DNA of 64,000 nt, taken from the NCBI GenBank assembly GCA_024638815.1, contig JAHEJM010000005.1:27040-91039 (forward strand). Reading direction: 5' to 3'. Below are positions 5,394 to 58,840 of the stretch, in pieces. The notes beneath the pieces are model-generated. The model was not told where the DNA came from. It did no database searches and saw only the letters and a program-made list of their open reading frames with translations. The position numbers and the translations under genes are program-made. The DNA is from Acidimicrobiales bacterium. Lineage in GTDB: Bacteria > Actinomycetota > Acidimicrobiia > Acidimicrobiales > SZUA-35. How positions within the stretch are numbered: position 1 is the stretch's first letter; the number at the start of each line of letters is the position of its first letter.

Positions 5394-5619
5394 CGGCCTA
5401 GTTTCGCTCGCTGGCTTGGATCTTCACAACTGAGTCAAATTTCGGCGACCGTTGGCCGGAGGCCAAACTCGGGTCGGTGAGCACCGTCTCGCCGTACTAG
5501 ACTATCGCCACCGGCGAACTCCGTCGTGGCGGCGGGACGACACCAACCGTCCGATTCCAATCGTCCGACAACGGCCGCCCTGCCGTACAAATCGGAAACC
5601 GGGCAACCATACTGGCTGG

Positions 5620-17603: not shown

Positions 17604-18890
17604 TCAGTGGCCAACGGCAGCCGCCCCCTTCTCCCCCACCAGACGACCATGGCCGAATCGGTCGAGACCGAAGGCCTGTATCAGCTCGGGGACCGACTTG
17701 GTGGCCACACATTCGGCCATGGTCTCACCCGAGACCGGGCCGGCCTTGAACCCGTAGGTTCCCCAGCCGACGTCGCACAGGAAGCCCTCGACCGGAGTGA
17801 AGCCCATGATCGGTGAGTAGTCGGGGGTCATGTCGCACAGTCCGGCCCACTGTCTCAGCAGGCGCATCTTGGAGATGCCGGGCATCAGCTCCAGGACGTG
17901 GCCGGCCAGTTCCTCGGTGAACTCCAGTGAACCTCTCACCGAGTAGTTGTTGTAGGGGTCGACCGAGGCCCCGAACACCAGCTCGCCACGATCGGTCTGG
18001 CTGACGTAGACGTGGAGGGAGCCCGACACCACCACCGTGGGCAGGAAGACTTTGACCGGCTCGGTGACCGCGGCCTGAAGCGGCCGGGTCGAGATAGGGA
18101 GTTCGACACCGGCCATGGCCGAGATCAGCGATGCCCAACCGGCGGTGGCGTTGACCACGATCGGGGCCGCGATGTCCCCCTGGCTGGTTCGGACCCCGGT
18201 AACCCGCCCCCCGGCGCCCTTGCCTTCGGGCCCTTCACCGCCCTCGACCAGGATGTCGAGGACCTCGGTCTTCTGGTGGATCTGCACCCCCATGGCGTCG
18301 GCGGCCCGGGCGTAACCCCAGACCACCGCATCATGGCGGATGATGCCGCCGGGCGGATGGTAGAGGGCACCGAGGATGGGGTAGCGGGTGTGATGGCTGA
18401 CATCGAGGCTGGGGGCCAGCTCCTTGACCTGAGCCGGGTCGATGACCGATGAATCGATGCCCTGGAGTTTGTTCACTTCGGCCCGCCACCGCATCGTCCG
18501 CAGCGCGGCGTCGGAATGGGCCAGGGTCAGGTGGCCCCGTCGGGAGAACATCACGTTGATGTTCAGCTCACCGGCCATGTCGTTGTAGAGCTGGAGCGAT
18601 CGGTCGTAGAAGGCCACCCCCTCCGGAGTCAGATAGTTCGACCGGACGATCGCCGTGTTCCGACCCGACCCACCGGAACCGATGTAGGACTTGTCGACCA
18701 CGGCCACCTTGGTGATGCCGTGGTTGCGAGCCAGGTAGTAGGCGGTGGCCAGACCGTGCACCCCGCCGCCGATGATGACCACGTCGTAGCTCGGCCGGAG
18801 CTCGACCTGCCGCCAGGCCCGGGGCCACGAGTCCCCGCTGATCCCTCTTCGGGCCAAACCCAGGGCCGAGTAGCGGGCCGGCGGCTTCAT
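17604..18890 (-). CDS. soxB: sarcosine oxidase subunit beta
   Basis: It has the FAD fold YDVVIIGGGVHGLATAYYLARNHG and GSGGSGRNTAIVRSNY. I prefer the ATG at 18890 (MKPPARYSAL) over the track start at 18962. This leaves a 122-nt divergent regulatory region. Confidence 0.85.
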   Translation of the reverse strand: MKPPARYSALGLARRGISGDSWPRAWRQVELRPSYDVVIIGGGVHGLATAYYLARNHGITKVAVVDKSYIGSGGSGRNTAIVRSNYLTPEGVAFYDRSLQLYNDMAGELNINVMFSRRGHLTLAHSDAALRTMRWRAEVNKLQGIDSSVIDPAQVKELAPSLDVSHHTRYPILGALYHPPGGIIRHDAVVWGYARAADAMGVQIHQKTEVLDILVEGGEGPEGKGAGGRVTGVRTSQGDIAAPIVVNATAGWASLISAMAGVELPISTRPLQAAVTEPVKVFLPTVVVSGSLHVYVSQTDRGELVFGASVDPYNNYSVRGSLEFTEELAGHVLELMPGISKMRLLRQWAGLCDMTPDYSPIMGFTPVEGFLCDVGWGTYGFKAGPVSGETMAECVATKSVPELIQAFGLDRFGHGRLVGEKGAAAVGH

Positions 18891-18972
18891 CCACCATCTC
18901 CGACGGACATCGGTGTCATCGACTCGATGGTAGAGAGCGGGGATTCGGTCGTGAAATATCAATTCATCTAGA

Positions 18973-18995
18973 ATTGATCCATGTCTGCTATCAAT
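18973..18995. promoter_or_regulatory. LysR-type binding box (interrupted dyad ATTGAT-N11-ATCAAT)
   Basis: This is a perfect 6-bp inverted repeat with an 11-bp spacer (T-N11-A architecture). It sits in the AT-rich region between divergent soxB and the LysR gene, 18 nt upstream of the lysR ATG. Confidence 0.55.
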
Positions 18996-19012: not shown

Positions 19013-19942
19013 ATGAACCTGCGCCGCCTGGAATACTTCTGCGCCGTGGCCGATGAGCTCCACTTCAGCCGGGCGGCGGAGCGGTTGCACATGGCCCAGC
19101 CACCGTTGAGCCAGCAGATCCGCCGACTCGAGTCCGAGCTGGGGTTCGAGTTGTTCGAGCGCACGACGAGACGGGTCGTTCTGACCCCCAGAGGGCGTGA
19201 CCTGTATGACGACGCCCGACGGCTGGTGGCCGAAGCCCGTCGCCTCGAAAATCGGGTGGAGGAACTCCGTACCGGCCAGGCCGGCACGCTGCGGCTGGGC
19301 TTTGTCGACTCGGCCTCCTACGAGATCATGCCCCGCCTGGTCAGAGCGCTCCGCAGCCGGTGGCCGGCCGTCGAGTATCAGCTCCGCACTCTGTCGTCGG
19401 ACAGCCAGATCAAGGCGTTGCAGACCGGCGAGATCGATCTCGGTTTGGCCCGCACCGGGCCACCGGCACTGTCGCCCCCGGCCGGCGGGCCCGACGCTCC
19501 CCATGCAGGTGCGGTGACGTCCCTGCTCCTCACCGGCGAGCCCCTGGTGCTGGCGGTGGACGCCGATCACCCCCTGGCCCGGACCGCCTCGGTGGAGCTC
19601 TCAGCGCTGTCCGAGCAGCCGTTTGTGGGGTTCGATCGCATGATCTCACCTCGCCTTCATTTCGAGCTGGTCGAGCTACTGGCGACCTCCGGCGTGGACT
19701 ACGACCCGATCATCGAAGCCACCGACTACACCACGGTCGTCGGCCTGGTGGCCTCCGGTCACGGTGTGGCCCTGGTCCCGGCCGGAGTGCGCTGCTTCCA
19801 GCCACCATCGGTGGTCTATCTCGACATCAGTGACGAGGCGGCGGCCGTCTCGTTGCTCCTCCTTCATCGATCGGATGAGGAGTCCCTTCTGGTCGAACGG
19901 GCCACCGCAGTGGCTGTGGCCATGTTTGCTGATCATGCCTGA
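19013..19942 (+). CDS. LysR family transcriptional regulator
   Basis: The N-terminal HTH reads LRRLEYFCAVADELHFSRAAERLHMAQPPLSQQIRRLE, followed by a LysR substrate-binding domain. The gene is divergent from the sox operon. Confidence 0.9.
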   Translation: MNLRRLEYFCAVADELHFSRAAERLHMAQPPLSQQIRRLESELGFELFERTTRRVVLTPRGRDLYDDARRLVAEARRLENRVEELRTGQAGTLRLGFVDSASYEIMPRLVRALRSRWPAVEYQLRTLSSDSQIKALQTGEIDLGLARTGPPALSPPAGGPDAPHAGAVTSLLLTGEPLVLAVDADHPLARTASVELSALSEQPFVGFDRMISPRLHFELVELLATSGVDYDPIIEATDYTTVVGLVASGHGVALVPAGVRCFQPPSVVYLDISDEAAAVSLLLLHRSDEESLLVERATAVAVAMFADHA

Positions 19943-32952: not shown

Positions 32953-33647
32953 ATGGCCAACACGATGGCGATGATGGCGATCACGGCTCCGGCCAGTGAC
33001 AGCGACAGAGCCCGAAGCCGGCGCTTGCGCATGAGGAACTGGATGCCGAGGCCGCTCAGGGCGATGATGACCAGCAGGGCGCCGCTGATGTCGATGATCC
33101 AACGCCACGCCGACGTGGCATCCCGTCCCTTGTGCAGCTCGTTCATGATCCCGAGCAGGCCCTGGCGACTGGTCGTCAATTCGTATCGGCCGGACCTTGT
33201 GTCGAAGAAGAGGTCGGCTCCATAGCCCGGAGCCCGGTAGCTGATCGAGCCCTCATCTCCCTCGACTCCGAAGTCCGTCACCTCGCCCGATACCCCATGG
33301 CGCTCCCTGACCAGCTGGCTGACGGCCAAGAACCTGGTTCCGTCCGCTTCAGCCTCGGCGCCGCCGGCCGGTACCACCAGGTCGGTCGGCAGCGAACCGG
33401 TCACGGTTTCGGTCGTCGTGTCGGCACCGAGGAATGTCCACTCCGGATGGTTGAGCGTGATACCGGTTAGACCGAAGAACAACATCAGCAGCAGGCTGAT
33501 CATGCTGGTGTAGACATGGGCCCACCGCAACCAGAAGCTGGTTCGCCGGTTCAGCTCACCGGGCGGGGGCGGCGTCCGGCGAACCGGTGACCGGCGATGG
33601 GATGGAGCCGGAGGAGCCGGACGACGATCAGGGGTGAGCAGGCTCAC
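32946..33647 (-). CDS. PepSY-associated TM-helix domain membrane protein
   Basis: The sequence reads FWLRWAHVYTSMISLLLMLFFGLTGITLNHPEW...GIMNELHKGRD...WRWIIDISGALLVIIALSGLGIQF. I chose GTG at 33647 (VSLLTPDRR), preceded by GGAGG. The track start at 33809 would run through the 90-nt repeat. Confidence 0.7.
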   Translation of the reverse strand: MSLLTPDRRPAPPAPSHRRSPVRRTPPPPGELNRRTSFWLRWAHVYTSMISLLLMLFFGLTGITLNHPEWTFLGADTTTETVTGSLPTDLVVPAGGAEAEADGTRFLAVSQLVRERHGVSGEVTDFGVEGDEGSISYRAPGYGADLFFDTRSGRYELTTSRQGLLGIMNELHKGRDATSAWRWIIDISGALLVIIALSGLGIQFLMRKRRLRALSLSLAGAVIAIIAIVLAMP

Positions 33648-33715
33648 GGCCTCCAACGGTACCGCAAAACGCCGACCGCCGGCACGGCGCCGATCCTGCC
33701 GGTGACCTGGGCCTA

Positions 33716-33805
33716 GATTTCCTTGGTGGTAGGAAACTTGAACATTGCGGCAAGTCGTCTGCACCAAGGAATCTTGAGTTACCGGCCGAGGGCGGGGATA
33801 CCTAG
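33716..33805. repeat. 90-nt conserved intergenic element, copy 1 (second copy at 58272-58361)
   Basis: Ungapped hand alignment to copy 2 gives 72/90 identities. An inverted repeat GATTTCCTTGGTG...CACCAAGGAATC encloses about 33 nt, followed by a CCGGCC-N3-GGCGGG hairpin. The terminal CCTAG supplies the TAG stop (33802-33804) of the upstream minus-strand gene. Confidence 0.8.
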
Positions 33806-34431
33806 ACAATCAGCGCAAAGGCGTCAGGGATTGCCGACAGGGCAATCCGCCGGTATGAACCGATGAGGTGTCCGTCGACGCGGATCGGGATCGGGCGATC
33901 GAACCCGTGTTGCCACTCCGAGACACGGACCGTTCGTAGATCGGGGTGGGGCAGGTGGGAGCCGGTGCGGGCGCGCCGCACCGCCTCGACCCGCTGACGC
34001 CAATCCAGAGCGCCGACGGTGATGTCGAGAACCCCGTCGTTGGGATGGGCCCTCGGACCGAGACGAAGCGGTCCCAGCCAACGCGCTGACAGGAGGGGCG
34101 CATTCATCACCACGGCCCCCTCGCCGCGCCCGAGACCACGACGAGCGACCAGATGGGCCACAAACGGGACCTCCTGGTCGGCCCCGGTCCCGTCGGTGGC
34201 GTGAAGCAGTGCGAGATCGACCGGGAACCGCCATCGTTGCCCTACGGGTCGGGGTCTGTCGAGTCCCACCGTGGCCAGTAGATCACCGGTGGCGACCGAT
34301 GCCGTCAGTTGTTCATGGTGCCGCCACCGGTCGTGGGCCAGCAGTGCCAACTCCCGGTCGTTGTCGGCCGTCGGCACCTCACCCGTCGATGGGCTCGGCG
34401 CACCCCACGCCTCACCCTTGCGAATCGTCAT
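33802..34431 (-). CDS. hypothetical protein (weak resemblance to the C-terminal beta-domain of DAGK/YegS-type lipid kinases)
   Basis: I chose the ATG at 34431 (MTIRKGEAWG), which overlaps the helY 3' end by 20 nt. The C-terminal pattern is PNDGVLDITVGAL...IRVDGHLIG. The upstream part of the track ORF is Ser/Pro-rich. Confidence 0.4.
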   Translation of the reverse strand: MTIRKGEAWGAPSPSTGEVPTADNDRELALLAHDRWRHHEQLTASVATGDLLATVGLDRPRPVGQRWRFPVDLALLHATDGTGADQEVPFVAHLVARRGLGRGEGAVVMNAPLLSARWLGPLRLGPRAHPNDGVLDITVGALDWRQRVEAVRRARTGSHLPHPDLRTVRVSEWQHGFDRPIPIRVDGHLIGSYRRIALSAIPDAFALIV

Positions 34432-39011: not shown

Positions 39012-39234
39012 GGAAGGTAGTCCTCTCACCCGGTCTTGTGAGTTTGTCCTCCATAGGTTCGGCAACACACGAGCCACCCTTAAGCCATGGATGGAACAGA
39101 TGGCAAAATCGCCCACTTCGTGTGACCAACGAACCACCACTCCCCACGCTTCGTGATCGGCGCCCACCGAGTGCGCTGGACAGGGGCACGGAACGGGCTG
39201 TGCGATCCATGCCGTCCACCGGCAAGATGAATCG

Positions 39235-39975
39235 ATGACTTCCCGCCTACCCTCGTTGCACGACAAGGTGCGGACCTTCCGCCAGCACGGCTTCTCCGAC
39301 AGGAGTTTCGGGAACAACCTGGCCGACGTGGATACCGAGACGGGTCCGTTGGATACCGCCGGCGCCGGTGGCCTGGCGTCGAGCGTCTGGTTGACGGCCG
39401 ACAACCAGCCCGTGGTCCACGCCCGGTCCTCGCTCGGAGGCCGGCTGCGGCGACAGCGAATCTCGTCGTTGACGCTGGATCAGCTACCGGAATCGGTGGT
39501 GGCTCTTTCGGCCTTGATGAGCCGCCTGGGCCGGACCGGGGGTCCGGCCTCGGTCCTGCTCACGATGGCCGAGGACATCATGTTCGAGCCGGTCCAGGCC
39601 GTGCTCGACGCGGCCCCACCGCCGGTGGAGGGCGAGATCTGGCTCTCCCACAGCGATCCCGGGGTGCTGCAACGATGGCGACCACGAACCGGAGCCAGGC
39701 TGGTCAACGTGCTGAGCACGGTTCGGACGGCCAAGGGTTTGGAGAAGGAGGTGGCCCGACTGCACGAACTCGGCATCGACGCCGTGGCCGCCTTCCACAA
39801 GGAGTGGTCGGGGGGATCGGTGGCCATGGCTCATCGCTTCGGGGTGATGGCCTTCGCCACCGGGGCTGAGCACGAACGGGAACTCGCCGCCCTGGTCGAC
39901 GCCGGGATCGACGGTCTGGTCTGTGCCCACGTCGACCGCATGCTGGCCGTCGTGGCCCAGTACTACCCGTCATGA
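39235..39975 (+). CDS. glycerophosphodiester phosphodiesterase (GDPD)-fold protein with degenerate catalytic motifs
   Basis: The C-terminal pattern LHELGIDAVAAFHKEW...RFGVMAFATGAEHERELAALVDAGIDGLVCAHVDRM fits the GDPD TIM barrel. The N-terminal HRG, ENT, E.D and HD positions read QHG, NNL, SSV and HA. Confidence 0.5.
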   Translation: MTSRLPSLHDKVRTFRQHGFSDRSFGNNLADVDTETGPLDTAGAGGLASSVWLTADNQPVVHARSSLGGRLRRQRISSLTLDQLPESVVALSALMSRLGRTGGPASVLLTMAEDIMFEPVQAVLDAAPPPVEGEIWLSHSDPGVLQRWRPRTGARLVNVLSTVRTAKGLEKEVARLHELGIDAVAAFHKEWSGGSVAMAHRFGVMAFATGAEHERELAALVDAGIDGLVCAHVDRMLAVVAQYYPS

Positions 39976-40433
39976 GCCGGCGGGCCCTGGTTGTGCTGGT
40001 CGTGGTGCTGGCGGCGGCCGTCGTCGGCACCATCAGGACCACAGGCGACCCCGATGAGTCCCCCACGTCGAATTCCGAAAACGGCGTTGAGCTGGATATC
40101 GGCCGTCCGGTGTCCAATTCCCTCGACCCGACGTCAGGGCTACCCGTGGTCGACGTCGACCGGTTGCCATCGGAGGCGGCCGACACCGTGACCGTGATCC
40201 GCTGGGGCGGGCCCTATCCGTACGATCGCGACGGCACGGTGTTCCAGAACCGGGAGGGGTTGCTGCCCGATCGACCCACCGGGTACTACCGGGAGTACAC
40301 CGTGCTCACACCGGGAGAGGACGATCGGGGGGCGCGACGAATTGTGGCCGGTGGGAACGGCGAGCTCTACTACACCGCTGACCACTACTCGTCATTCGTG
40401 GTCATCTCCGGCGGAGAGGACCCGCCGTCATGA
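39972..40433 (+). CDS. secreted guanyl-specific ribonuclease (RNase Sa / N1-T1 family)
   Basis: It has an N-terminal signal/TM segment MSRRALVVLVVVLAAAVVG. The RNase Sa core reads GGPYPYDRDGTVFQNREGLLP...GYYREYTVLTPGEDDRGARRIV...YYTADHYSSF, with the catalytic Glu, Arg and His retained. Its ATG overlaps the upstream stop (ATGA). Confidence 0.9.
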   Translation: MSRRALVVLVVVLAAAVVGTIRTTGDPDESPTSNSENGVELDIGRPVSNSLDPTSGLPVVDVDRLPSEAADTVTVIRWGGPYPYDRDGTVFQNREGLLPDRPTGYYREYTVLTPGEDDRGARRIVAGGNGELYYTADHYSSFVVISGGEDPPS

Positions 40434-44295: not shown

Positions 44296-45657
44296 TTACA
44301 AGCTATCGATGAGCTTGGCCACCCGTTCGTCCTCGCTCCGGAACGGGTCCTTGCACAGCACGGTTCGTTGAGCCTGATCGTTGAGCTTGAGGTGGACCCA
44401 GTCGACGGTGTAATCCCGCTTCTTGTCCTTGGCCCGGCGAATGAAATCGCCTCGTAGCTTGGCCCGGGTGGTCTGCGGCGGCTGATCGATGGCCTCCATC
44501 ATCTCACCGTCGGTGAGGGTGCGCTCCACCAGACCACGATGCTGCAACCGGTAGAACAAACCACGGTCTCGGCGGATGTCGTGATACTGAAGATCGATGA
44601 GAGCCACCTTGGGGTGACCGAGGGTCAGATCGTGCTTGGCCCGATACGACTCGATCAGGTTGTGCTTGATGACCCAATCCAGCTCGGCGCCCAGCGACAA
44701 TGGGTCACGCTCGAGGCTGATCAGGACATGCTCCCACATGTCGAGTGCCCGCTGCTCGTCTTGGGGTAGACCCTTGTTGTCGGCATACTTCAGAGCCCGG
44801 GATAGAAACTCGGCCTGCATCTCCAGCGCTGAGATCTCCCGACCGTCGGCCAACCGTACCCGTCGGGTCAGGGACAGATCGTGGCTGATCTCGCGTATGG
44901 CCCGGATCGGGTTCTCCAAGGTCATGTCGGGCAGCACGCAGGTCGGATCCTCGACCATGCGCAACAGCACGGCCATGACCCCCACCTTGAGATACGTGGT
45001 GTATTCGCTCATGTTGGAGTCGCCGACGATCACGTGCAGACGCCGGTGGTGCTCGGCGTCGGCGTGGGGCTCGTCTCGGGTGTTGATGATGGGCCGCGAC
45101 CGGGTGGTTGCCGAGGACACACCTTCCCAGATGTGTTCCGCCCTCTGGCTGAGGGCGAACATCGGGCCACGGGCCGTCTGCAGAACCTTGCCTGCTCCAG
45201 CGTAGATCTGACGACTGACCAGAAAAGGAATCAGGATCTCGTCGTAGTGGTTGAGGTCCTCGGTTCGGTTCGTCAGATAATTCTCATGGCAGCCATAGGA
45301 GTTGCCGGCCGAATCGGTGTTGTTCTTGAACAGATGCACGGTGCCCCGAATGCCTTCATCCAGCAATCGGTCCTCGGCCGAGCCCAGCAGCTCCTCGAGG
45401 ATGCGCTCTCCGGCCTTGTCATGGACAACGACCTGGCCGATCGAGTCACACTCCGCCGTGGCGTACTCGGGATGGGAGCCGACATCGAGATACAGCCGGG
45501 CCCCGTTGACCAGGAACACATTGGATGACCGGCCCCACGACACCACCCGCCGGAACAGGTAGCGGGCAACCTCGTCCGGGCTGAGGCGACGTTGGCCCCG
45601 AAGGGTACAGGTCACCCCGTATTCCGTTTCCAGACCGTAGATTCGACGAGAGAACAC
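44296..45657 (-). CDS. pafA: Pup--protein ligase PafA
   Basis: 453 aa reading [13 protein letters not shown]...[20 protein letters not shown]. It is paralogous to Dop but lacks the Dop loop. Start codon is GTG. Confidence 0.9.
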
Positions 45658-47600: not shown

Positions 47601-49115
47601 TTATGCTCCAAGCTTGTCGAGCAATTCGGACACCGTTTCACTTTCATCCAGAATAGCTCCGACGTGGTGCTCGGTGCCTCGCGTCGGCTCCAGCATGGGC
47701 ACTCGGCGCAGCGGGTCGGCGCCGACATCGAACACGATCGAATCCCAGTTGGCAGCTATTACGCTGTCGGCGAACTTCTGGAGGCATCGGCCCCGAAAGT
47801 AGGCCCGGGTATCGGGAGGAGGCTCGGTCACGGCCCGGGCGGCGTCATCATCGGCGACCACAGCCTCCAGGCCGGCGCGGGCGGCCAGAGACTTTGAAGG
47901 CCGGAGATCGTGGTACTGCAAGTCAAGAGCCCGGAGCCGATGATCGTCCCAGTCGCAATCGTGGCGATCCATGAAACCGGTCAGCAGCCGATGCTTGGCC
48001 ACCCAATCGACCCAGTGGGCAATCGAGGACGGATCGGTCTCCAACCCGTTGAGCACCTGCTCCCATCGCTCCAGGACCAGTTTCCCGCACTCCTCCCCCA
48101 CCGACTCCAGGCCATGGCGATCGGCCCAACTCCGGGCCTGCTGAAGCAGGCTCCATTGGATCTCCAGCGAGGTCGCCGTCCTGCCGTCGTCCAGTGTCAG
48201 AGGCTCGGCCAGGGACAGATCGTGGCTGACGGCATGCATGGCCTGAACCGGGTTACGGATCAGGATCTGCTCGTCGTAGGCACCGTCCTCCAACATGGCG
48301 AACACGATGGCCGTGGTGCCCACCTTCAACAGGGTCGCCATCTGCGCCATGTTGGCATCGCCGGCGATGACGTGGAGTCGACGGTACTTCTGGCTGTCGG
48401 CGTGGGGCTCGTCCCGAGTGTTGACGATGGGACGCTTGAGCGTGGTCTCCAGCCCCACCTCCTCCTCGAAGTGTTCGGCCCGCTGAGTCAGCTGGTAGGG
48501 GATCTCGGCCGAGGTCATTCCCGGCAGCTCGCTGCCCACCTTGCCCGAGCCAGTGAACACCTGACGGGTCACGAAATGGGTGGTGGCGGTGTGGATTATC
48601 TGACCGAATGGCAGATTACGATCAAGCAGGTAGTTCTCGTGGCAACCGTAGGCGTTGCCCTTGCGGTCGCTGTTGTCCTTGTAGATCACGATCTCCTGCC
48701 CCGGGGGCAGGGCGGCGGCGGCCGCCTTCATCGAATCGACCAGGATCATCTCGGCCGCCCGGTCGTAGAGCACTACCGAGAGCGCGTCTCGGCACTCGGG
48801 GGTGGACAGCTCGGGATGGGCATGGTCGACGTAGTACCGGGCGCCATTGGTCAGCACGGCATTGACCAGATGGGTCTCCACCTCCGGCGGCATGGCGTAG
48901 TCCGGTGCCAGCATGTCACGGGCATCAACTCCCGGGGTCTCGTCGATGAAGTCCCAGGCGATCGGCGCGGTTCGGTCGTCGAGGCCGCCCACCTCGGAAC
49001 CGACATAGGCGTTGATCAGCAACGACGAGGCGGAAACCGGGTTCCATTCATTGGTCCCGCGGACCATGATGCCAAACTCGGTCTCGATTCCTACTACTTT
49101 CGGTATTGCCATCAT
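47601..49115 (-). CDS. dop: Pup deamidase/depupylase Dop
   Basis: It reads MMAIPKVVGIETEFG...GARYYVDHAHPELSTPEC. The gene lies between arc and pup. The second ATG at 49112 is equally possible. Confidence 0.9.
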   Translation of the reverse strand: MMAIPKVVGIETEFGIMVRGTNEWNPVSASSLLINAYVGSEVGGLDDRTAPIAWDFIDETPGVDARDMLAPDYAMPPEVETHLVNAVLTNGARYYVDHAHPELSTPECRDALSVVLYDRAAEMILVDSMKAAAAALPPGQEIVIYKDNSDRKGNAYGCHENYLLDRNLPFGQIIHTATTHFVTRQVFTGSGKVGSELPGMTSAEIPYQLTQRAEHFEEEVGLETTLKRPIVNTRDEPHADSQKYRRLHVIAGDANMAQMATLLKVGTTAIVFAMLEDGAYDEQILIRNPVQAMHAVSHDLSLAEPLTLDDGRTATSLEIQWSLLQQARSWADRHGLESVGEECGKLVLERWEQVLNGLETDPSSIAHWVDWVAKHRLLTGFMDRHDCDWDDHRLRALDLQYHDLRPSKSLAARAGLEAVVADDDAARAVTEPPPDTRAYFRGRCLQKFADSVIAANWDSIVFDVGADPLRRVPMLEPTRGTEHHVGAILDESETVSELLDKLGA

Positions 49116-57698: not shown

Positions 57699-58199
57699 TC
57701 ACTCGGGCAGGAAGTCTTCGGGATTGACCTCGTCCAGGAAGCGCCGCAGTTCCTCGACCATCTCCTCCTCGTCACCCTGATCGTCGGTCTCGACCTCTTC
57801 GATCCCGGCCTGCTCGATCAGATCCTCTTCAGCGAAGATCGGGCTGCCGGTTCGTGCCGCCAGAGCGATGGCGTCCGAAGGGCGGGAGGAAATGACGAGG
57901 GAGCCGCCCTGGGCGTCTCGGATATGGAGCTCGGCGAAGAATGTACCTCGCCGCAGCTCGGTGATGACCACTCGATCAAGAGCGGCCCCCAGACCGTCGA
58001 CGACCTCGGCGAACAGGTCGTGGGTCATGGGACGAGGGGTGGGCTCGCCCTGAAGGGCGAGATCGATGGCGTGGGCCTCGGGCCCACCGATGTAGATGGG
58101 AACGACGCGGCGGGGGCCCGTGGATTCCCGCAACAACAAGATCGGCGCATTGGTCGGCATCTGCACTCTCACGCCGACCAACTCCATTTCGACCGTCAT
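57699..58199 (-). CDS. bifunctional nuclease (DUF151) family protein
   Basis: 166 aa reading MELVGVRVQMPTNAPILLLRE...VPIYIGGPEAHAIDLALQG...RPMTHDL. It occupies the conserved actinobacterial position after the GarA-like FHA gene. Confidence 0.8.
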   Translation of the reverse strand: MTVEMELVGVRVQMPTNAPILLLRESTGPRRVVPIYIGGPEAHAIDLALQGEPTPRPMTHDLFAEVVDGLGAALDRVVITELRRGTFFAELHIRDAQGGSLVISSRPSDAIALAARTGSPIFAEEDLIEQAGIEEVETDDQGDEEEMVEELRRFLDEVNPEDFLPE

Positions 58200-58271
58200 A
58201 GCACCACCGTAGTCGAGAATCTCCTGTCCGTCCTACCGGCGATCGTCATGTCACGACGCCTCGATCGGCAA

Positions 58272-58361
58272 GATTTTCTTGGTGGTCGAAGAGTTGAACG
58301 TCGCGGCAAGTCTTTCCACCCAGGAAATCTTGAGATACCGGCCGAAGGCCGGGATACCTAG
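58272..58361. repeat. 90-nt conserved intergenic element, copy 2 (first copy at 33716-33805)
   Basis: It has the same length, orientation and architecture as copy 1 (72/90 identities). The terminal CCTAG supplies the TAG stop (58358-58360) of the FHA gene. Confidence 0.8.
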
Positions 58362-58840
58362 TCGACAACTCGCCGACTGAGGGCGAGGTAGACCAGCTTG
58401 AACTTGCCGATCTGGACCTCGTCGCCATCGACCAGCTCGGCAGATTCGACCCGGGACTGATTGACGTAGGTGCCGTTCAGGCTGCCGGCGTCGGACACCT
58501 CGTAGCCGCCGCCGAGCCGGCGGACAACTGCGTGGCGCCGGGACACCGTGACGTCATCGAGGAAGATATCGCTGTCGGGATGGCGGCCGATGGTGATCTC
58601 GTCCTTGTCGAGGGCGATCCGGCTCCCTCGCTTCGGACCCTGGCGCACCACGAACATGCCCACCGTCCCCTCCGGGAACTCCACGTCGAGATCGACATCA
58701 GGATCGTCGACATCGGCCGGAGGGACGAAGGCAATGGTCTGGTCGTTCGGCACCCGGGCCTCCAGCGGCGTGCCGCAAGAACTACAGAAGCGAGCCGCAA
58801 CCGGGTTCACATACCCGCACGATGGGCATCCGTCGGCCAT
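58358..58840 (-). CDS. FHA-domain protein (GarA/OdhI position) with N-terminal double zinc ribbon
   Basis: The N-terminus reads CPSCG...CSSCG. The FHA core reads ITIGRHPDSDIFLDDVTVSRRHAVV...SLNGTYVN...GDEVQIGKFKLVY. The gene is directly downstream of gcvH. Confidence 0.85.
   Translation of the reverse strand: MADGCPSCGYVNPVAARFCSSCGTPLEARVPNDQTIAFVPPADVDDPDVDLDVEFPEGTVGMFVVRQGPKRGSRIALDKDEITIGRHPDSDIFLDDVTVSRRHAVVRRLGGGYEVSDAGSLNGTYVNQSRVESAELVDGDEVQIGKFKLVYLALSRRVVD

Follow-up and report, generated by a model that had tools for sequence, protein, structure and literature searches.

The window (the whole 64-kb stretch of DNA that was analysed) contains two copies of a small, folded element, and at both of these unlinked loci the extra DNA begins on the TA of an existing C-TAG stop codon. 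With a probability of about 0.7, we consider the element to be a non-coding and non-autonomous MITE-like insertion that targeted CTAG/TA and is now decaying roughly neutrally. Comparison of filled and empty orthologous sites establishes a discrete insertion, together with its boundaries and its CTAG flanks, and the element shows no RNA-type constraint. Its mobility would have been transposase-mediated. We would class the element as a new member, restricted to its lineage, of the small non-autonomous bacterial insertion elements, a known class.

Position, sequence and fold of the two copies

A repeat search of the 64-kb window aligned positions 33715-33805 with positions 58271-58361 at 80% identity over 91 nt; the alignment is free of gaps, both copies lie on one strand, and they are the sole non-coding repeat family of the window. 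The ungapped pair in the same orientation that the initial annotation had described is thus borne out. At up to three mismatches, the 35-nt stop-proximal (3') block was found twice in the window as against 0.00 occurrences expected from shuffles, and the hairpin arm AGATTTCCTTGGTG was found in a window search at the two copies only. Coordinates of all features are collected in Table 1.

Each copy had also been said to supply the stop codon of the gene upstream, and it does so: in both cases the codon is a minus-strand TAG within the palindromic CTAG. The next gene, on the other hand, had been placed 70-160 nt farther on; the actual distance from copy to gene start is 72 nt for copy 2 (start at 58199) and 212 nt for copy 1 (start at 33503). 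The two copies have the same orientation relative to their upstream genes, which is uninformative at n = 2. In relatives, the neighbours kept at locus 1 are tatC, helY, YegS_C, and PepSY, and those kept at locus 2 are gcvH, FHA, BFN, and MerR, with genes of the Pup-proteasome further on.

Each copy folds into two hairpins, a long imperfect one and, after it, a short one with the sequence CCGGCC-N3-GGCCGG, an architecture that had been recognised at the outset from the letters alone. The folding energy of the hairpins beats that of shuffled sequence on both strands, with z-scores from -1.5 to -3.9, the best of which (-3.9) belongs to the plus-strand fold of copy 2. The element body is 85-86 nt and the length of the insertion is ~88 nt; read in the mRNA sense, copy 1 is C-TA-G/GTATCC...GGAAATC/TA-G, and the element termini are GGTATCCCGG... 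and GATTTCCTTGG.... As terminal inverted repeats, these ends are weak: GGTATCC and GATTTCC, the latter being the reverse complement of the opposite end, match at 5/7 positions, or at 6/12 when extended. The 14-bp inverted repeat that forms the long palindrome is internal and subterminal, and the two ends of the element take no part in it.

The best-preserved pairing is found in the related locus L161, where the 94-nt unit at copy 1 is CTAGGTATCCCGGCCTTCGGCCGGTATCTCAAGATTTCCTTGGTGCAAAAGACTTGCCGCAATGTTCAAGTTTTCTACCACCAAGGAAATCTAG. That copy is fully paired, with 27 Watson-Crick pairs plus one G-U; in its long hairpin, the outer stem pairs perfectly over 14 bp, and the one G-U falls in the inner stem of 8 bp. 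All other copies have 2-9 non-Watson-Crick positions each, and in L037 the outer stem is mostly broken. This accumulation of non-pairs is the pattern of a decaying palindrome.

The claim that neither strand holds a conserved open frame stands only in part. Open frames do exist, several of them, yet six-frame translations of the element had no match at E<=10 among 5.8 billion proteins, and no frame looks like a protein. A hidden small protein, or gene calls spanning other copies, was accordingly rejected for lack of a protein match in all six frames. An integron attC site was considered as well. Such a site is an imperfect palindrome that follows a cassette ORF and is bounded by RYYYAAC ... GTTRRRY core sites; core sites were found on neither strand of the element, and the flanking genes form a conserved syntenic operon and are not cassettes.

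Table 1. Features of the two element copies and of the genes downstream of them. Positions are those of the window; the strand is left empty for features read without strand.
Feature	Position	Strand	Description and evidence
PepSY_TM-like gene, 185 aa	32946..33503	-	Downstream at locus 1; outside the element
Copy 1, distal CTAG	33713..33716		Would be the duplicated target (TA or CTAG); direct reading; kept in L161 and in MAG contig L166
Copy 1, long imperfect hairpin	33715..33774		Arms AGATTTCCTTGGTG / CACCAAGGAATCT; inner stem ACTTG/CAAGT
Copy 1, body	33717..33801	-	85 nt, mRNA sense GTATCC...GGAAAT; covariance model 90 bits; missing from the L163 orthologous site
Copy 1, short GC hairpin	33782..33796		CCGGCC GAG GGCGGG, one mismatch; MAG copy perfect there
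Copy 1, proximal CTAG	33802..33805	-	Holds stop TAG 33802-33804 of the YegS_C-like gene 33802-34431; empty L163 site GTC TAG AGTCC; MAG contig end
Bifunctional nuclease (BFN) domain gene, 166 aa	57699..58199	-	Downstream at locus 2; outside the element
Copy 2, distal site	58269..58272		Probable decayed target, CAAG (plus strand) or CTTG (mRNA sense); L033/L037 CCAG (mRNA sense); each one substitution off CTAG
Copy 2, long imperfect hairpin	58271..58330		
Copy 2, body	58273..58357	-	85 nt; covariance model 116 bits; in L032, L033, L037, L038; not in L034, L035, L036
Copy 2, short GC hairpin	58338..58352		CCGGCC GAA GGCCGG, 6 perfect pairs
Copy 2, proximal CTAG	58358..58361	-	Holds stop TAG 58358-58360 of the zinc-ribbon/FHA gene 58358-58840; empty L034 site GAC TAG AGGG

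Filled sites, empty sites and the proposed CTAG target

Homologues bear names such as Acidimicrobiia or Acidimicrobiales bacterium. The exact FHA protein of the window is encoded in the NCBI MAG GCA_947258395.1; where its stretches L032 and L165 overlap the window, identity is 99.2-99.3%. Locus 2 (FHA to BFN) is filled in the window and in L032, L033, L037, and L038, whose FHA proteins are 96-100% identical, and is empty in L034 (FHA 90% identical) and in L035/L036 (76%). In L034, GCCGGTAGGACGG lies 29 nt beyond GAC-TAG, and the distance from the element to this motif in the window is 28 nt. Locus 1 (YegS_C to PepSY) is filled in the window, in L039, L161, and L162, and in L166-L168, of which L039, L167, and L168 are the window's own population and L166 is the MAG; the YegS_C of the L161/L162 lineage is 90% identical to that of the window. 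It is empty in L163, where YegS_C is 71% identical. At both loci, the filled/empty comparison places the insertion boundaries at the CTAG of the stop codon, within 1 nt. Both insertions would be older than the split of the sampled strains. In L037/L038, the stop at copy 2 is now TGA (CTGAGTATCC).

On the far side, copy 1 is again bordered by CTAG; the window shares this two-sided CTAG with the L161 lineage and with the MAG contig L166. Read in the mRNA sense, the window and L032 have CTTG as the distal tetranucleotide of copy 2, and L033 and L037 have CCAG. Because CTTG and CCAG are each one substitution from CTAG, the latter is the most parsimonious ancestor of the copy 2 distal site. IS630 itself targets CTAG and duplicates TA. 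CTAG or TA on both sides of an insertion is the classic signature of IS630-/IS5-type DDE transposition (PMC3189936; PMC2229807). Candidate enzymes would be of the IS630 type, with duplication of TA within CTAG, or of the IS5 type, with a 4-nt duplication of CTAG; the target is palindromic, and for that reason the two duplicated lengths, 2 nt and 4 nt, cannot be told apart. Insertion of a restriction fragment cut at CTAG (C^TAG), considered as another source of the CTAG...CTAG flanks, found no support.

The overlap of the element with stop codons can be viewed in the light of how rare its target is. The 64 kb contain 15 CTAG sites as against 201 expected from base composition, a ~13-fold under-representation (a second-order model predicts 53 in the window), and three of the 15 are edges of the element. 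At least four of the sites are genuine gene stops (YegS_C, S26 peptidase, MerR, and FHA). In the mechanism that we propose, CTAG is avoided in a genome of 66% GC, and several of the surviving sites would be a TAG stop preceded by C. An element of ~85-86 nt would have integrated twice into this palindrome, with a target duplication of 2-4 nt. Insertion at a C-TAG stop would spare the gene, as duplication of TA (or of CTAG) would rebuild C-TAG at the gene-proximal edge, and the upstream frame would end as before. Each copy would then seem to 'provide' the stop because of the choice of target and its duplication and not because of any function, and we infer that integration into CTAG with duplication of TA/CTAG is a sufficient cause of the overlap.

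The MAG assembly breaks at the element. The edge of its contig CAMYIH010000021.1 coincides with the C of the stop-codon CTAG of copy 1, and L166 starts CTAGGTATCCCGGCCC. The end of contig CAMYIH010000043.1 was computed to lie at about window position 33707, ~6 nt past the other CTAG, on the assumption that its 5.5 kb are free of indels (the end of L165 corresponds to window position 39222 and record position 5516). Two contigs that each include the element and break off on its far side hint indirectly at further near-identical copies, or at filled/empty polymorphism, either of which would make the element a repeated or polymorphic node in the assembly graph; strain heterogeneity could also be the cause of the break, in place of extra copies. 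Together, the filled and empty sites, the CTAG flanks, and the MAG break support, in the form of a small mobile insertion, the dispersed REP/MIRU-like intergenic repeat that was among the explanations first offered.

Copies have been seen at two insertion sites, both in the 64-kb window. A covariance model built from five copies and run against the window and ~700 kb of related loci found the known copies and their reverse-strand echoes only. In a scan of a genome collection for the loop block TTGAACNNNGCGGCAAGTC...TTGAG, all 31 matches were to the LELGGKS motif of aldehyde dehydrogenases. The 21-base stop-proximal block had no match in a metagenome scan, and a 17-base block had 120, all by chance and none scoring beyond the pattern itself; viral contigs gave one chance match to the 17-base pattern and nothing else, and blastn against plasmids and phages gave no match. 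No transposase gene is present in the window or in ~90 kb of the related loci.

Divergence, pairing and tests for an RNA function

Between orthologs at locus 2, the element differs by 16-19% compared to 14-15% for third codon positions of FHA; between orthologs at locus 1, the values are 7% for the element and 18% for third codon positions. Variation is unevenly spread within the locus 2 element. The arms of the long hairpin are variable in 19/44 columns compared to 31/179 four-fold sites of the flanking genes (p = 0.0005), and the hairpin loop varies less than the arms. Variable columns number 3/17 in the unpaired part of the 3' module and 2/31 in the stop-proximal GC-rich 31 nt, a value that is not significantly below that of the four-fold sites (p = 0.18). 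The low variation of the 31-nt block and of the loop could reflect some constraint at locus 2.

Direction of change was obtained by polarising substitutions with copy 1 as the outgroup: 13 were AT>GC and 4 were GC>AT. The GC content of the 3' module is 0.42 in L161, whose copy is pristine, and climbs to 0.66 in L037, where decay is most advanced; the genome value is also 0.66. The simplest reading is that an AT-richer insert has been ameliorating toward host composition. Amelioration would account both for the fast AT-rich arms and for the slow block, which is already at host GC, and it favours a foreign or mobile origin over a conserved RNA. After insertion, the element would have drifted at a roughly neutral rate, from an AT-richer and near-perfect hairpin toward the GC content of its host.

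A cis-regulatory RNA of the 3' UTR or intercistronic region had been another of the early candidates. In its fullest form, this explanation holds that the element is a selected cis-acting module of the operon mRNA (minus-strand sense), perhaps once mobile, whose GC hairpin behind the stop and long hairpin jointly serve as a 3'-end protector, a processing site, or a cistron uncoupler, and we regard it as unlikely. At both loci, where the paired genes run in one direction, the element follows the stop codon directly; this agrees with such a role, as do the folds that beat shuffled sequence on both strands and, at locus 2, the contrast between the stop-proximal and unpaired 3' columns and the arms. 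However, the element is missing from close relatives that have the same gene pair, its divergence is about neutral with a direction from AT to GC, and composition accounts for the slow GC-rich block. Covariation was assessed in an alignment of six distinct copies to a three-helix structure, which has low power: 88% of the cells are paired, and two pairs are compensatory (both U-A to C-G), but about 15 disruptions are uncompensated. The covariation score of 0.090 compares with a mean of 0.085 for shuffled alignments and was reached by 164/500 of them. The mismatch in the short hairpin of window copy 1 and the largely broken outer stem of L037 also speak against selection on the fold.

Searches for known RNA categories agree with this. 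Rfam had no match at the gathering threshold in the whole window, and at E<=10 gave only noise, the best being flavi_FSE with 14.8 bits versus a gathering score of 43; ARAGORN found no tRNA or tmRNA. Inside the copies, there is neither a sigma-70-like promoter nor, on either strand, a terminator composed of a hairpin plus T-tract. The GC hairpin itself is present, but it is followed by a T-run on neither strand, so that an intrinsic terminator was rejected, as was an outward promoter given the absence of a promoter-like consensus inside the copies. An effect of the hairpins on the operon mRNA is possible.

The strand of any transcript was addressed through G-U pairs. The initial annotation took one stem difference that became a wobble only in a plus-strand transcript as a weak hint of an antisense RNA; over six copies, seven G-U pairs are specific to the mRNA sense and nine to the other strand, and the hint dissolves into symmetry. 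This lack of strand bias is equally unhelpful to a module of the operon mRNA. That the element is a plus-strand gene for a small RNA, antisense to the 3' ends of the upstream genes, is thus highly improbable: the plus-strand fold of copy 2 does have the best z-score of any, but neither strand has a promoter- or terminator-like consensus, Rfam offers no match, divergence is about neutral, and close relatives are missing the element.

The pattern of variation at locus 2 bears on one further scheme. The element might belong to an undescribed, TIR-poor, two-hairpin mobile family of uncultured Acidimicrobiia, one that homes specifically to C-TAG stops as 'safe harbours' in a genome with almost no CTAG and brings a portable GC hairpin to the position behind the stop, where the host would keep it for mRNA 3'-end formation or processing; its enzyme may not be a classical IS630 or IS5 transposase. 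Such a family would be expected to leave a near-invariant stop-proximal 31 nt and loop beside decaying arms, as at locus 2, and we entertain it as an outside chance.

Comparison with known small mobile elements

REP and BIME sequences are extragenic palindromes that sit just after operon stop codons and can stabilise the upstream mRNA. The element resembles them, and the RAYT-mobilised REPs in particular, in being an extragenic palindrome directly behind a stop codon in an operon. However, REPs span 20-40 nt, share a conserved GTAG head, and do not duplicate their target, whereas the element is ~86 nt, has two hairpins unrelated to each other, lacks a GTAG head, and has CTAG/TA on both flanks; we do not count it as a REP/BIME.

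Another candidate is a hairpin-guided single-stranded DNA element, of the REP/RAYT kind or of the kind derived from IS200/IS605 (PATE), which would insert beside CTAG and end in CTAG with no true target duplication. The ends of the element do suit this idea, since convincing terminal inverted repeats are lacking and yet there are two subterminal hairpins, with a defined tetranucleotide flank; in addition, both copies are on one strand of a window along which the cumulative GC skew falls throughout. Both ends of an IS200/IS605 element are recognised by the same TnpA, however, and the two hairpins here are unrelated in sequence. The REP hallmark is absent, no Y1 transposase gene lies in the window or flanks, and CTAG/TA on both sides is the DDE signature described above. 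On balance, we find such a single-stranded DNA origin, by an HUH-type element that targets CTAG, doubtful, and a MITE-like insertion is the reading carried forward.

Another comparison is with the MIRUs (mycobacterial interspersed repetitive units), which are reportedly actinobacterial sequences of 40-100 bp, intergenic within operons and in one orientation relative to the genes, and which are said to overlap the stop codon of the upstream gene. MIRUs are tandem units of 40-100 bp whose small ORFs overlap the upstream stop and the downstream start. By that definition, the element is unlike a MIRU: its copies are single with no tandem structure, and copy 2 and copy 1 stop 72 and 212 nt short of the downstream gene start, respectively. 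It was therefore not assigned to this family.

Several of the properties by which a MITE is judged are present. The element is small (85-86 nt, where a MITE is under about 400 bp) and has no coding capacity, there being no protein, Pfam, or Rfam match; it is a discrete insertion at two loci, as judged from filled and empty orthologous sites; and it is bordered by what would be a target-site duplication, with CTAG on both sides of copy 1 and the distal site of copy 2 one substitution off. One close parallel is MITEPsy1 from Pseudomonas syringae pv. phaseolicola, a 100-nt MITE related to the IS5 family whose insertion at CTAG or YTAA duplicates 4 nt (PMC3189936). Both are ~100 nt and non-coding, and an end of MITEPsy1 starts GTATCC, as does the stop-proximal end of the element, but this six-base match may be due to chance, and there is no sequence similarity beyond it. 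Unlike MITEPsy1, the element has a terminal match of only 5/7 and no identified parent IS, and its host belongs to another phylum.

Some accepted families of bacterial MITE-like repeats with TA termini have contiguous TIRs of just 4-9 bp (PMC2229807). The TA-flanked repeats include RUP of S. pneumoniae, which is related to IS630-Spn1, Correia/NEMIS of Neisseria, and ERIC/RU (PMC2229807). Like the element, these are intergenic and non-coding and have long stem-loops, their size being ~100-150 nt; they also share with it 5'-TA-3' termini, a target duplication, and boundaries that were defined from filled versus empty sites. They differ from it in three respects. They occur in tens to hundreds of copies per genome, whereas two copies of the element have been seen; their stem is built from the two ends of the element, whereas the long palindrome here is internal to one half; and the TIRs of RUP match a known IS630 transposase gene, whereas no such partner is known here.

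If the MITE-like reading is correct, the element overturns nothing in current understanding, being of an ordinary kind rather than a new regulatory RNA; its annotation as a riboswitch or sRNA would be unwarranted, and its overlap with stop codons is no evidence of translational coupling or recoding. Elements of this sort fragment MAG assemblies, of which GCA_947258395.1 is an example, and the AT>GC amelioration seen when orthologous copies are compared provides a modest natural clock for drift in composition. The element would be a first small mobile repeat described in a lineage of uncultured Acidimicrobiia, and it would illustrate cleanly how elements that target TA/CTAG come to sit on the stop codons of high-GC genomes, which they only seem to 'donate'.

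Divergence at locus 2 and the FHA stop codon

The long-hairpin arms of the locus 2 element were compared among window 58271-58330 and two orthologs that also carry the element, L033:8013-8072 and L037:10419-10478 (approximate); 19/44 arm sites were variable, a higher proportion than the 31/179 seen at four-fold degenerate positions in the genes on either side (p = 0.0005). Substitutions within the element were biased, 13 being AT>GC versus 4 GC>AT, and the GC content of its 3' module ranged from 0.42 to 0.66 among copies. In the lineage of L037 and a further such ortholog, L038, TGA replaces TAG as the FHA stop (CTGAGTATCC versus CTAGGTATCC); two adjacent substitutions destroyed CTAG while the stop was retained. 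One relative of the FHA protein, P0242 (a cluster member at ≥90% identity), is encoded on a 2,036,092-nt contig, that is, in a near-complete relative genome.

Sequence context in the window

CTAG is strongly avoided across the whole window: base composition predicts 201 sites and a second-order model 53, and 15 are present. There is a single TTAA, and TATA is found five times. A near-perfect palindrome, ATCAATTCATCTAGAATTGAT, has one of the few CTAGs at its centre; it lies between divergent genes and looks like a LysR-type operator. The loop block of the element, TTGAACnnnGCGGCAAGTC (33738-33756 and 58294-58312), termed invariant in the initial annotation, matches, base for base, the codons that specify LELGGKS, a motif of aldehyde dehydrogenases. 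Used as a search pattern, the block is a trap, since it returns aldehyde-dehydrogenase genes of many phyla (loci L001-L031). Direct repeats D1 and D6 do not form a non-coding repeat; they are the paralogous Pup-ligase-family genes (PafA, Dop). A secreted-ribonuclease and barstar gene pair is flanked by the signal peptidase gene on one side and by tatC/helY on the other.

Coordinates of features in the window and in homologous loci of relatives
Feature	Position	Strand	Remark
FHA stop ortholog	L037:10394-10400; L038:2024-2030		Matches window 58355-58361
Palindrome	18953-18985		
DAO/sarcosine-oxidase-like gene	17604-18962	minus	One side of palindrome
LysR-family regulator gene	19013-19942	plus	Divergent; other side of palindrome
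Ribonuclease/barstar pair	Window about 39235-40433; L165:20134-21757	plus (window)	PF00545, PF01337
Direct repeats D1, D6	44866-45147, 48207-48485		73-79% identity, 3.3 kb apart

An assembly break at copy 1

In the public MAG GCA_947258395.1, the source of L165 (record positions 5516-27285 of CAMYIH010000043.1) and L166, an assembly break falls exactly on element copy 1 (window 33713-33805; L166:1-96). The C of the stop-codon CTAG is the terminal base of contig 21, and contig 43 ends, by arithmetic, ~6 nt beyond the other CTAG. This break suggests either that more near-identical copies exist or that the site was polymorphic, filled and empty, in the MAG sample.
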